Below are positions 55,515-59,174 of a stretch of 64,000 nt of DNA, in pieces. The number at the start of each line of letters is the position of its first letter. Position 1 is the first letter of the stretch. Made by a program: the position numbers and the translations under genes. This DNA comes from Synechococcus sp. (GTDB taxonomy: Bacteria; Cyanobacteriota; Cyanobacteriia; Thermostichales; PCC-7336), in assembly GCA_051439605.1 (NCBI GenBank), contig JBFRWN010000076.1:1-64000 (forward strand), written 5' to 3'. The notes below the pieces were generated by a model. The model worked only from the letters and a program-made list of their open reading frames with translations. It did not search any database and was not told the DNA's origin.

Positions 55515-58094
55515 ATGAGCCCCCGAGTGAAAGTTGCGAAAATCTTGTTTGCTGCCGAGGACTTTTTTCAGGAACAAACCAGTCGAGTCTTTGTGCAGTT
55601 GTGGGAAGCTGGCGAGCAGACTCAACGGACCTCAGGGGCTCGTCTGAATGCCGACCCGAAAATTTTAGAGCTGTACGAACAATGGCGCCAAGCCTACAAG
55701 AAGTATTACCGTCACTTGAGTCTCAGAGATGATTTTGAGCCGTTGGGAACGGTCAATCGCACGCGGGAAGAAGATGCGATTGACCTAGAGCAACTGAAGG
55801 GCGAACTGCAGCACTGTTCTCACCGGCTCGTCAGCCAATTTAACGACTGGTTGAGTACTCAACCGGAGTTTCGAGAGGGGGTTGAAAATTGGTTGGGCGA
55901 TCGATTCAACCTTGATGACGACGAAATTCGAATTGCGATTGAAAGTGACGATCCCAATGTTAGACGCCTGCCCTGGCAAGCTTGGAAATTACTGGAGAGA
56001 TTCGATCGCGCGGAGCTATCGATTGGCGATACTTACCACGACAGCCGCAAAAAGCCACCAGCCAAGACAAAAGGCGATCGCCTCAAACTGCTCGCAGTCT
56101 TTGGCTACGCAGGAGGATTGAACCTAGATGAGGATCGTCAAACAATTGCAGGGTTACCCAATATCGAGGCAGAGTTCTGTGTACAGCCTTCTTTACAGGG
56201 GCTAAAAACAATTCTGCGCCAAGAACCCTGGGATGTGTTCTATTTTGGCGGTCACAGTTCTAGCGATTCTCTGGGTCAAACGGGAGTACTGTACCTGGAC
56301 TCTCAAACGCCGATTGCCATCTCCCAATTAAAAGGGGCACTGAAAACGGCCGTGCGGGATGGGGGACTGCAGCTGGGTATTTTTAATTCTTGCGATGGAT
56401 TGGGGTTAGCTGCCGAATTAGAAGACGTCCATTTCCCTCTGTCGATTGTCATGCGGGAACCCGTGCCCAATGTAGTGGCTCAGCGGTTTTTGAAATATTT
56501 TTTGCAAGCTTACACTCGCGGCAAGCCTCTATATCTGGCTTTACGACAAGCACGACTCTTGCTAGAAGATGACAGCGAAGAGCTCCCCTACGTGCATTGG
56601 CTGCCCGCCATTGCTCACGACACCTCCACCAACCCCCTCCTTTGGCAGGATTTCGTCTCAGAGCAAGAGTCTCAAAGTCCCAACCCTCACCGTTCTGTTC
56701 CTCAGGATCTAACTCCTCCTGGAACAGTGCCCACTCGCTTACGAGACGCATGCCCATCGCAACCCGAGAGGGTTCCCACCAAACTTGCCGGTCCTCCTCC
56801 AATCGCAGAGACCGTTCGCACCTTCACCCCCACAACCCTTCTGGGGGGGGCGTATGAAGTCATTGACAACTTAAGTAGCGGAGGCTTTTCAGTCACTTAC
56901 TTGGCCAGAGCTTTAGATTTGCCCGGACAGCCCCACTGCGCGATTAAACAGCTCAAGCCCATCCCCCTCAATGCGGACATGGCTCGAGCTCGACAAATGT
57001 TCCAGCGGGAGGCAGAAATTCTATTCAAGCTGGGCTCGAGCACCGATCGCATTCCTACGCTCTACGCCTCGTTTGAGCAAGAGGGAGAGTTTTATTTGGT
57101 GCAGGAATATATTGGGGGGGAAGAACTGGGACAAGAACTGCGGCGACGGGGACGGTTGAGCGAATCAGAAACGCTGGAATTACTCAAGGATATTCTTGAA
57201 GGCCTGGAAATCGTTCACAACCAAGACATTATTCACCGCGATATCAAACCCTCAAATTTGATGCGTCGCAAGTCTGATGGAAAAATCGTGCTGATTGACT
57301 TCGGGGCAGTCAAGGATGCAATAACAATCGCGGCTGCGCCCGATACGTCTAGCGTGCAAAGGGGGGCCAGCGTAGTGGGGTCACCTGGATTTATGGCCCC
57401 CGAACAGTCCTTGGGTCACCCGCAGCAGTGCAGCGATATTTTCTCGGTGGGCTCGGTGGCGATTTGGGCAATCACGGGTCAGCCACCTATCCAGTCCATA
57501 TCCAGCGAAGGGGTGACCGGAGCACTCGTGCGTCGCGATCGGGTGCAGTTGAGCGATGGTATGGCAGAACTGCTCTATCGGATGACAGATGAGGAGAGTC
57601 AGAACAGGTTTGTCGACGCGACCGAAGCTCTGCGGGCTGTCAAGCAGTTAAGGGACAGGAATCCCAAACGGCAATCTCCCACTGCCATTTCACAGATAAC
57701 AAGTTCGGAGACTCCTGTTTCGTCGCGCTCTGCTTCCAGACAGTCCTCTCGCTTGAGCACCTGGGTGACGATTGGGATTGCAGCACTGGCAGTCTTGGGG
57801 GGAGGTTGGTTGGCGTGGATCCTGCTGTTTAAGCAAGATTTAGAAATCCTACCGGTAGAGCCACCACAGGAGATAGAACCATCACCCACTGAATCTCTCC
57901 CCCCTGACAGTCAGTTTTGTCCGGGACCGCTATGTCCCAGGACTTCTACAACGGAGCCCATATCTCCTCAAGATGGACAGCTTGGCAATCCGAGTTCGTC
58001 GAACGATGTCCAACCTGCAGAGCCGATATTTCCGCAAACAGGAGAACCCGCTGACAGTCAGTTTTGCCCGGGGCCGTTGTGTCCCAATCCCTAA
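55515..58094 (+). CDS. CHAT (caspase-like) protease - Ser/Thr kinase - TM fusion protein
   Basis: LPWQAW, FYFGGHSS (His) and IFNSCDG (Cys) CHAT dyad; GGFSVTY, AIKQL, HRDIKPSN, DFG, APE kinase motifs; TM WVTIGIAALAVLGGGWLAWILLF; Pro-rich tail. Confidence 0.92.
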   Translation: MSPRVKVAKILFAAEDFFQEQTSRVFVQLWEAGEQTQRTSGARLNADPKILELYEQWRQAYKKYYRHLSLRDDFEPLGTVNRTREEDAIDLEQLKGELQHCSHRLVSQFNDWLSTQPEFREGVENWLGDRFNLDDDEIRIAIESDDPNVRRLPWQAWKLLERFDRAELSIGDTYHDSRKKPPAKTKGDRLKLLAVFGYAGGLNLDEDRQTIAGLPNIEAEFCVQPSLQGLKTILRQEPWDVFYFGGHSSSDSLGQTGVLYLDSQTPIAISQLKGALKTAVRDGGLQLGIFNSCDGLGLAAELEDVHFPLSIVMREPVPNVVAQRFLKYFLQAYTRGKPLYLALRQARLLLEDDSEELPYVHWLPAIAHDTSTNPLLWQDFVSEQESQSPNPHRSVPQDLTPPGTVPTRLRDACPSQPERVPTKLAGPPPIAETVRTFTPTTLLGGAYEVIDNLSSGGFSVTYLARALDLPGQPHCAIKQLKPIPLNADMARARQMFQREAEILFKLGSSTDRIPTLYASFEQEGEFYLVQEYIGGEELGQELRRRGRLSESETLELLKDILEGLEIVHNQDIIHRDIKPSNLMRRKSDGKIVLIDFGAVKDAITIAAAPDTSSVQRGASVVGSPGFMAPEQSLGHPQQCSDIFSVGSVAIWAITGQPPIQSISSEGVTGALVRRDRVQLSDGMAELLYRMTDEESQNRFVDATEALRAVKQLRDRNPKRQSPTAISQITSSETPVSSRSASRQSSRLSTWVTIGIAALAVLGGGWLAWILLFKQDLEILPVEPPQEIEPSPTESLPPDSQFCPGPLCPRTSTTEPISPQDGQLGNPSSSNDVQPAEPIFPQTGEPADSQFCPGPLCPNP

Positions 58095-58574
58095 GAACGT
58101 TGCAATAGATAGAGTAGTGCGAAGCCAGAGATCGCTGCTGACACTCTGCAAACATTCACCAGACAACAGCGCTCTGTTGTTGAGAGTTGAGCATATCAGC
58201 ATCCTTTCCCCACTAGATATTGATGATGTAAGGGAACTACTCAAGCGACCTGTAATGCGACACTTCCTGTGCTCGGGAGCTTGCTCTGGAAGGGCATAGT
58301 GGAATCGGATTGATACAATTCCATCCATCTAGGGCAATCGTCAAGTCGTTGAGGACCTGTCAGCTATTCAGACCTCTGATGAGCATATAGCGACTGTCAA
58401 GTTGCTTAGGACATTTCAGCGACCCCATTCCCTGGTAGAGCATAGATCGCTTGTCCTAACTGAAATGTTAAGAGCTATAGGTCTATCGATCCAAGCTAAA
58501 ACTGTCCAGCTGTGAGGCAGGCAACCCTCTAAATCCGTTTTGCTTTTCCCGCTTTCCTCTAGTGGAGTCTATCC

Positions 58575-59174
58575 GTGCAAGCTCAATCTTTATTAACCGG
58601 TTTCACAGCTGCGATCGCTGCCATTGCTCATCTGGCCCTAACACTCCCTGCACAAGCCAGTGAAACCAAAATATTTTGTGGGATTCACAATGGGTATCCC
58701 ACCACAATTGTTTCCTCGCCCCAATACGAAAACTTGCCTATCATCGGTTGGACTTCGCAGTACTTTGGTCCCGAATACACACCGCAAACCCGTTGCGAGA
58801 TTGTGTCACAGCGCTTTCAAGAGTTTATGGATCGGGGAGTGTTGGTTAATCTGACAACGGGAATTCTCAATGGCTACCCTGTGATCTGTGCAACTCCAGT
58901 ACAGGGTGGAAGCTGTGATGGCAGACTGCTAATCACCCTCAAGCGAGGAGATAATTCTCGCCAGCGCTTGCAAGATATCCTCAATGTCTCAACCGGTCGG
59001 GGGGATACTATTTATGAAACTGGAGGCAGAGTCTACATTGATTTCCAGGACATGTTGCTTCAAAAAGCTGCTGACCTATCTGCAACACCCGCAGCAGAAG
59101 TACAGGCTTTACCAACTAGCGAGCAAGACCGTGGCCGAAGTGGTTTTTGCCCCGGTCCTCTTTGCAATGAATAA
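58575..59174 (+). CDS. COP23 domain secreted protein
   Basis: Signal peptide (PAQA); FC..., IIGWTSQYF, YTPQTRCEIVSQRFQ, TTGILNGYPVICA, LLITL. Confidence 0.88.
   Translation: MQAQSLLTGFTAAIAAIAHLALTLPAQASETKIFCGIHNGYPTTIVSSPQYENLPIIGWTSQYFGPEYTPQTRCEIVSQRFQEFMDRGVLVNLTTGILNGYPVICATPVQGGSCDGRLLITLKRGDNSRQRLQDILNVSTGRGDTIYETGGRVYIDFQDMLLQKAADLSATPAAEVQALPTSEQDRGRSGFCPGPLCNE

Follow-up and report, generated by a model that had tools for sequence, protein, structure and literature searches.

A terminal CPGPLC loop shared by a CHAT-kinase receptor and a neighboring COP23 protein in Synechococcus sp.

In a 64,000-nucleotide stretch of a Synechococcus sp. genome (contig JBFRWN010000076.1 of assembly GCA_051439605.1; "the window" refers to this whole stretch), we found the heptapeptide FCPGPLC three times in two neighboring genes. 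Two copies lie in the tail of a membrane receptor that joins a CHAT/caspase domain to a Ser/Thr kinase domain, here called the CHAT-kinase (Pfam: CHAT PF12770 at residues 223-378, E = 1.4e-7, 31.7 bits against a cut-off of 24; Pkinase at residues 447-698, E = 1.4e-33). The third closes an exported protein of the COP23 family, named after the 23-kDa circadian oscillating protein (PF14218), whose gene begins 480 nt past the CHAT-kinase stop codon on the same strand. Selection acts on the loop peptide, and the same ending recurs on membrane kinases of other genomes, most of which have a COP23 gene nearby.

Consistent with the initial annotation, translation of the window gave two copies in the kinase tail and one at the COP23 end (Table 1). 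The kinase tail reads DSQFCPGPLCP at nt 57906-57938, within ...DSQFCPGPLCPR..., and again at nt 58053-58085, within the terminal ...DSQFCPGPLCPNP, and its loop peptide ends ...SQFCPGPLCPNP. These two starts had been placed 2 nt too early (57904 and 58051), and the COP23 copy had been placed correctly. The COP23 protein ends ...SGFCPGPLCNE, its C-terminus reading ...GRSGFCPGPLCNE before the stop codon. A six-frame translation of the 4.9-Mb genome (9,794,124 codons) contained CPGPLC at these three places only, all within a span of 1.25 kb.

Table 1. Coordinates of the loop copies and of the surrounding genes in the window.
Feature	Coordinates	Strand	Description
FCPGPLC copy 1, CHAT-kinase residues 801-807	57915..57935	+	followed by Pro-Arg; only internal copy seen anywhere
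FCPGPLC copy 2, CHAT-kinase residues 850-856	58062..58082	+	3 residues from C-terminus
FCPGPLC copy 3, COP23 residues 191-197	59145..59165	+	2 residues from C-terminus
Predicted membrane helix, CHAT-kinase residues 750-772	57762..57830	+	hydrophobic WVTIGIAALAVLGGGWLAWILLF, read by eye
Acidic Pro/Ser/Glu/Gln-rich tail, 87 amino acids	57831..58091	+	one Lys (773), one Arg (809)
CHAT-kinase receptor gene, 859 amino acids	55515..58094	+	CHAT/caspase, Ser/Thr kinase, one membrane helix, 87-residue tail (Pfam)
COP23 gene, 199 amino acids	58575..59174	+	signal peptide, COP23 domain, flexible linker, C-terminal loop
Two exported paralogs, Trypsin_2 plus formylglycine-generating enzyme (FGE)-sulfatase domain (lectin-fold "FGS")	48857..52218	+	61% identical; RR-type signal peptides
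Sigma-factor-like gene (418 amino acids) and DUF1822 gene (455 amino acids)	52953..55447	+	directly upstream of CHAT-kinase

The three copies use the three synonymous codon sets written out in the initial annotation, which had taken them as a sign of selection on the peptide rather than of recent DNA duplication. The part on selection held. Between the COP23 copy and either kinase copy, 6 of 21 nt differ, and because all of these differences are synonymous, with P = 1.5e-5 for preserving the peptide under simulated neutral substitution (6 changes in 21 nt), selection acts on the loop peptide and not on the DNA. Only 1-2 of the 7 third positions are identical between the COP23 and kinase copies, and no DNA homology was detectable between them. 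The part on duplication held less well for the kinase copies, which lie inside a 40-nt direct repeat (88% identical, 147 nt apart) whose flanks cannot be aligned beyond its ends. Their DSQFCPGPLCP peptides differ by 4 synonymous and no non-synonymous changes (P = 1.4e-3 in the same simulation for 4 changes in 33 nt), and copies 1 and 2 have the look of a short duplication within the gene that selection has since preserved.

All three copies are also kept in a metagenome contig (L181) that is 98.4% identical to the window; a metagenome scan for QFCPGPLCP gave five contigs, this strain and four with the match in junk frames. Between the window and this strain, the CHAT-kinase shows 17 non-synonymous and 18 synonymous differences, and a 221-amino-acid protein at 59389-60054 shows 9 and 6, respectively; the locus at 55515-60054 is thus evolving fast. 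Three tandem 14- to 15-nt AATGAATAAGGGT-like units occupy 59166-59207, beginning at the last two COP23 codons and the stop codon. L181 is without one of them, yet its COP23 still ends ...CNE.

In the CHAT-kinase, WVTIGIAALAVLGGGWLAWILLF is preceded by Arg-rich and followed by acidic sequence. Because the kinase must be cytoplasmic and there is one helix only, the tail is read as lying outside the cytoplasm. The COP23 protein carries what appears to be a Sec-type signal peptide ending in AQA before Ser. Both topologies were read from the sequences by eye rather than taken from a predictor, and they bear out the earlier proposal that both bearers of the loop are exposed outside the cytoplasm.

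The COP23 assignment is strong (E = 3.3e-34, 118 bits against a cut-off of 27, residues 34-161; Pfam). In the AlphaFold2 model of the protein, blocks covering residues 31-140 have a predicted local distance difference test score (pLDDT) of 90-97 and residues 151-199 one of 42-66, which places the loop in low-confidence, flexible sequence. Four cysteines of the domain (C35, C74, C105, and C114) are invariant in 23 COP23 sequences, the window protein included. No relative of the fold was found by Foldseek against the PDB at E ≤ 0.001; a wide VIA-align search gave at best Z = 4.4 over 44 residues, and the protein atlas gave no usable match. When COP23 and the tail were used as queries in word-based protein searches, only the window's own clusters and one 39%-identical COP23 were returned. 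Such searches are blind to the motif, as a motif-only match in a local phmmer run scored 11.6 bits with E of about 1e5.

We therefore searched for the loop at the DNA level. A degenerate pattern for FCPGPLC, applied to 60 relatives and then to 400 genomes of the same class (an even draw from the class and not all cyanobacteria), gave single matches in 6 other genomes and no credible protein end. A scan of genome contigs for the same peptide, with Leu as CTN, gave at least 120 matches, and of the 120 that were translated none lay 5 residues or fewer from the end of any open reading frame longer than 150 amino acids. Without the leading Phe, the pattern TGYCCNGGNCCNYTNTGY matched 71 times in 62 of the 400 other genomes, and all 71 matches were translated. 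Eight of them, in seven genomes, are in frame and lie no more than 2 residues before the C-terminus of proteins that are 439-732 amino acids long; by our own rough estimate, about 0.2 such terminal placements would be expected by chance. Six of these proteins (one each in G314, G363, G356, and G342 and two in G328) end [I/V]CPGPLC[S/T/V/N][E/K], a kinase in G280 ends CPPNVLCICPGPLCPN, and an amidase in G127 ends QYCPGPLCQ. Clustered matches were found in none of the other sampled genomes, and because none has two nearby matches, the triple occurrence is unique in the sample.

Seven of the eight bearers are Ser/Thr kinases (Pkinase, E = 1e-32 to 3e-48), with the kinase domain followed by a hydrophobic stretch, which we take as a membrane helix, and with the loop at the very end. 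In six of them, the helix is followed by a homologous helical domain, a proline-rich stalk, and then the loop; the G280 kinase has what looks by eye like a shorter version of the helical domain and no stalk. The window kinase fits this group in having a Pkinase domain, one membrane helix, and a hydrophobic-CPGPLC end no more than 4 residues from its C-terminus. It differs in having no helical domain between membrane helix and stalk and in the shortness of its tail (only 87 amino acids); the outer helical domain is absent from the whole genome (tblastn, E ≤ 1e-3). The eighth bearer, encoded in L276 of G127 (8300-9616, +), is an N-acetylmuramoyl-L-alanine amidase (Amidase_3) whose catalytic domain is immediately followed by the loop. 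At a distance of 6.5 kb from this amidase, a protein is encoded that resembles the window CHAT-kinase in its N-terminal part. In the window's own genome, two DUF2808-like paralogs end in other cysteine loops, GCDGPRC (C46:63829-64557, −) and GCNRVSC (C98:76740-77336, +); the N-terminus of the former includes a hydrophobic stretch, and an FGE-domain gene at the end of its contig is 1.3 kb away.

The initial annotation had coupled a receptor-type kinase to COP23, and this link recurs in other genomes. A COP23 gene lies within 3 kb downstream of six of the seven other CPGPLC kinases, in five cases 26-111 nt away on the same strand and in one case 2.8 kb away, and the order of kinase and COP23 in all six loci is that of the window. 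In one of these loci (L269 of G314, 1043-10433, with the same order in L270-L272), the CPGPLC kinase, at 6806-8755, is followed by COP23, at 6026-6709, and then by a signal-peptide protein, a CHAT protein that is exported (E = 1.8e-72), and an alpha/beta hydrolase of the DUF1400 family. The C-terminal half of the signal-peptide protein, which ends ...YAITF, resembles an outer-membrane barrel by eye, with no Pfam match. Kinase and CHAT are thus separate proteins in G314, whereas they are fused in the window.

A search for the outer helical domain, which is independent of the motif, found this domain in 117 of 301 genomes. We read the best 30 loci, with a view of only about 1.4 kb downstream. 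Five of their kinases end in a Cx4C loop (CSGSKC, CSSRNC, CGGSAC, CSGSRCE, and CPSGVCL), two end in longer loops, and 23 have no loop. The only locus among these 30 that contains COP23 is that of G135, whose kinase has the sole CP-type end, CPSGVCL; COP23 was present beside none of the 4 other Cx4C ends, none of the 2 longer loops, and none of the 23 loopless kinases. A further kinase of the same family, in G054, ends CPLLGVEC and lies 10 nt from a convergent COP23 gene; it was found via COP23 and hence is not an independent count. Because of the view of about 1.4 kb and the close kinship of several CPGPLC kinases, the association between CP-type kinase ends and COP23 adjacency is suggestive and not a statistic.

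On the COP23 side, a HMMER search with COP23 gave 1347 matches at E ≤ 0.001. Among the best 150, of which we read the 149 others, three have a CP-type terminal loop and four have other cysteine loops. P0162, a 139-amino-acid fragment that is 41% identical to the window protein, ends TPSLCPGPLCQSPQ (LCPGPLCQSPQ, then stop) and is the nearest neighbor of the window protein in a tree of COP23 domains; its linker is unrelated to that of the window COP23, and the loop is nevertheless retained. P0124 and P0129, also among these 149, have two COP23 domains each and end ECPPLLCN and ECPPVLCD; the genome of P0129 was not found among the 400 genomes. None of the COP23 homologs found in the relatives' genomes ends in the motif. 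The loop is thus mostly placed on kinases, on COP23 in P0162, P0124, and P0129, on an amidase in G127, and on both kinase and COP23 in this genome, which is the only such exception in the sample.

Separately from the kinase pairing, COP23 genes adjoin Trypsin_2 genes in six of seven relatives' loci (L173 and L175-L179). When COP23 tails were compared with their neighbors in the seven loci by exact 6-mers and short BLAST, sharing was found in G037 only. There (L173, 10421-12493, −), a cysteine-containing C-terminal module of about 85 amino acids (64% identity, two copies in the protease, no Pfam match) is common to a COP23-like protein and the Trypsin_2 protease next to it, and a nearby CHAT protein combines a membrane helix with a PsbP-like match that is weak and falls short of the Pfam cut-off. 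The sharing of C-terminal modules within COP23 clusters thus recurs in another form in one of the seven loci. A COP23 subgroup in eight loci (L016, L017, and L019-L024) has a conserved tail of its own, INLRPFLDPADGGTG...LNPDRFR, which is distinct from the cysteine loop.

Orthologs of the CHAT-kinase in the same genus are 65% identical to it over residues 1-734 (G001) and 1-715 (G003), with residues 1-220, the region ahead of the caspase domain in which an EACC2 domain would lie, conserved in both. Neither ortholog is flanked by a sigma, DUF1822, COP23, or trypsin-FGE gene, and DUF1822 was not found in three same-genus genomes. No remnant of the orthologs' C-terminal region was found downstream of the window kinase gene. 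In the window, the DUF1822 gene at 54080-55447 is well supported (PF08852, E = 5e-54). The sigma-like protein has no Pfam match and shows only a weak match to an RpoS region (E = 0.0017, 17.9 bits against a cut-off of 378.7); a homologous pair of sigma-like and DUF1822 genes is present in G005. In the two trypsin-FGE proteins, the triad H103, D138, and S215 is invariant in a 20-row alignment (A3), and such fusions are also present in other cyanobacteria (20 aligned). A search of 250 genomes for whole fusions at E ≤ 1e-105, a threshold that is perhaps too strict, found only the window's two genes. Directly upstream of them, an HlyC-type acyltransferase gene (E = 2e-34) and a gene for a 1042-amino-acid protein with RTX calcium-binding repeats lie at 44996-48741.

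The spacer between the kinase and COP23 genes holds two tandem copies (58335-58465) of a dispersed repeat of about 65 nt with the core GTCAAGTCGCTTAGGAC. A third copy of the core lies in the window at 30873-30897 (−), and at least 52 copies occur genome-wide. The repeat looks like a small mobile or repetitive extragenic palindromic (REP)-like element, and its possible role as an operon-specific promoter was rejected, since the element is genome-wide. A promoter and terminator scan of 57900-59500 gave scores no better than those of shuffled sequence.

We take FCPGPLC, tentatively, to be this genome's version of a conserved cyanobacterial protein end, a hydrophobic residue followed by C-P-G-P-L-C and 1-4 further residues. 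In the oxidizing extracytoplasmic space, two cysteines four residues apart would close into a small disulfide ring, which would be carried on a flexible and often proline-rich stalk. The main home of the motif is the outward C-terminus of membrane Ser/Thr kinases encoded beside COP23. There the ring may serve as a docking knob that joins the kinase stalk to a periplasmic, COP23-centered module, with either the COP23 domain or some reader that COP23 also uses as its binding partner. We favor this account of a kinase-COP23 envelope module as possible rather than probable. In the window, the kinase is fused to a CHAT/caspase of the sigma-factor/DUF1822 type, with its sensor reduced to a bare stalk and two putative knobs, and since COP23 bears the same knob, COP23 and the receptor may compete for one site or be co-recruited to it. 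It is a speculation that a protease cut after the Arg behind copy 1 would turn this copy into a C-terminal knob. In a more specific version, which we regard as doubtful, the CP-type loop would be the ligand by which COP23 engages membrane Ser/Thr kinases; the abundance of COP23 would gate signaling across the inner membrane, and its own loop would compete with the two receptor loops, giving a titration switch that feeds the caspase-like protease and a dedicated sigma factor.

Several observations weigh against the docking account. The motif was not found in three same-genus and three same-family genomes, and in the G001 and G003 orthologs the C-terminus is a different, longer one that has neither such a membrane helix nor the motif. 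The initial annotation had named absence from orthologs together with absence from everywhere else as evidence against its claim, and half of this was found: close orthologs are without the motif, and other genomes have it. The eighth bearer is a cell-wall amidase for which no COP23 neighbor was found, the G280 kinase has no COP23 in its 18-kb locus, and the COP23 proteins beside the six CPGPLC kinases end without a cysteine loop. The idea that the motif is a private code of two proteins had to be given up for the loop on the amidase and the loopless COP23 proteins beside the kinases. A single GTDB family supplies five of the CPGPLC kinases, which makes the counts non-independent. Other members of the kinase family end in CSGSKC, CSSRNC, CGGSAC, and CSGSRC, and because of these different Cx4C loops, the exact residues of the loop may matter less than a terminal disulfide. 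In the AlphaFold2 model, for which the tail alignment is shallow, the tail of COP23 is not docked on its own domain.

The variety of Cx4C ends in one kinase family would also fit a generic end-cap, in which a proline-rich terminal disulfide ring shields the end of a disordered stalk from exoproteases, or stiffens it, without any specific partner. Copy 1 excepted, the loop always lies 0-4 residues from the C-terminus; its bearers are of three unrelated kinds (kinase, COP23, and amidase), and the DUF2808-like paralogs of this genome likewise stop at their loops (GCDGPRC and GCNRVSC). However, CPGPL is identical across unrelated families and across kinases whose kinase domains are only 36-41% identical to that of the window, none of the 6 differences from the COP23 copy changes an amino acid, and an internal copy would be unable to cap anything. 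Since CPGPL is exact across unrelated carriers and C-terminal, and since COP23 adjacency goes with CP-type ends and not with others, we prefer recognition by a partner over protection of an end, and we consider the end-cap rather unlikely. By-products of local copying between neighboring genes, with no shared function, would account for the 40-nt direct repeat around the kinase copies, but not for a peptide kept despite saturated synonymous change (P = 1.5e-5) or for the recurrence of the motif at the same place in P0162 and in eight proteins from seven further genomes; such an origin is very improbable.

An extracytoplasmic pair of cysteines four residues apart may also form a redox or metal switch, its thiols sensing periplasmic redox state or binding metal or haem and altering kinase output, with COP23 as redox partner. 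The Cys-Pro dipeptide would suit haem, four COP23 cysteines are invariant, and, in the part of one study that deals with it, COP23 is described as a membrane-associated protein whose transcripts cycle strongly between day and night (PMC6315102). These invariant cysteines may, however, be mere structural disulfides. Moreover, the Pro-Gly-Pro-Leu core is not known to us as a metal-site motif, and overall we judge a switch of this kind unlikely. The initial annotation had also offered the exported proteases as readers of the loop. The FGE domain or active site of the trypsin-FGE proteins would then read or cut the loop on COP23 and the receptor, much as DegS senses C-terminal peptides, which would suit the two trypsin-FGE genes in the same gene row, the Trypsin_2 genes next to COP23 in six of seven relatives' loci, the position of the tail's only Arg directly after copy 1, an Arg-Gly-Arg before the COP23 loop, and a proposal, in passages of an earlier survey, that FGS domains are ligand sensors (PMC8195603). 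As a BLAST search of the eight other CPGPLC loci with the window trypsin-FGE proteins detected no relative, these proteases are unlikely as general readers. The loop also does not match the CxPxR motif of FGE substrates, and we regard the protease tag as quite improbable. A predicted complex of the kinase tail (residues 790-859) and residues 62-590 of trypsin-FGE protein 2, made with the 20-row alignment, scored 0.00, which speaks neither for nor against such binding.

To our knowledge, neither a molecular function nor a fold relative has been described for the COP23 family, and we know of no input for most cyanobacterial membrane Ser/Thr kinases. A literature text search for CPGPLC, FCPGPLC, or CPGPLCP found no published description, and the one paper found in which COP23 and kinases co-occur for cyanobacteria concerns diazoplast metabolism. 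The loop on COP23-paired kinases is a first testable clue to the role of COP23, and as a terminal element it makes both the mechanism of COP23 and the input of membrane Ser/Thr kinases concretely testable. It also indicates that the variable outer end of a caspase/sigma-factor signaling system can be rebuilt from such a tag.

Among known systems, PASTA kinases (PknB/Stk1) combine a kinase domain in the cytoplasm with a single membrane helix and an outer portion that contacts a ligand in the envelope, and the window kinase has the same overall layout. It differs in having no PASTA repeats, its conserved element being a terminal six-residue ring; the PknB_PASTA model matches residues 441-741 only, essentially the kinase domain (132.9 bits against a cut-off of 450). 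The C-terminal sorting tags of the PEP-CTERM/exosortase, GlyGly-CTERM/rhombosortase, LPXTG/sortase, and archaeal CGP-CTERM systems directly precede a membrane helix and basic residues. The loop resembles them as a short conserved end motif on exported proteins of several unrelated families, but it has no hydrophobic helix or basic tail behind it and is followed by 1-4 polar residues and the stop codon. The substrate motif of the formylglycine-generating enzyme is C-x-P-x-R around the target cysteine, whereas the window sequence is C-P-G-P-L-C; in the 20-row trypsin-FGE alignment, one nearly invariant cysteine lies near the C-terminus (C560), rather than the cysteine pair that is catalytic in FGE. 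Oxytocin- and vasopressin-type peptides are Cx4C disulfide rings, and the structural analogy extends to the 20-atom ring and to the Pro-Arg after copy 1 (CPGPLC-PR). There is no homology to these peptides, and the putative ring here is tethered to large proteins.

The closest likeness in gene content is to the EACC2-caspase systems with an extracytoplasmic function (ECF) sigma factor and DUF1822 that were described by Kaur, Iyer, Burroughs, and Aravind (eLife 2021; PMC8195603). In the passages of that paper on these systems, the EACC2-caspase protein varies greatly at its C-terminus, where a kinase or a membrane-anchored outer domain may be present. COP23 has no occurrence in its main text, and these passages do not mention a cysteine loop or exported trypsin-FGS neighbors. 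The window combines a CHAT/caspase with a Ser/Thr kinase and a membrane-anchored outer part, with a DUF1822 and a sigma-like gene upstream, and the quite different C-terminus of the same-genus orthologs fits the variability described there. What sets the window protein apart from the systems of these passages is its outer "sensor", which consists only of a stalk with two loops.

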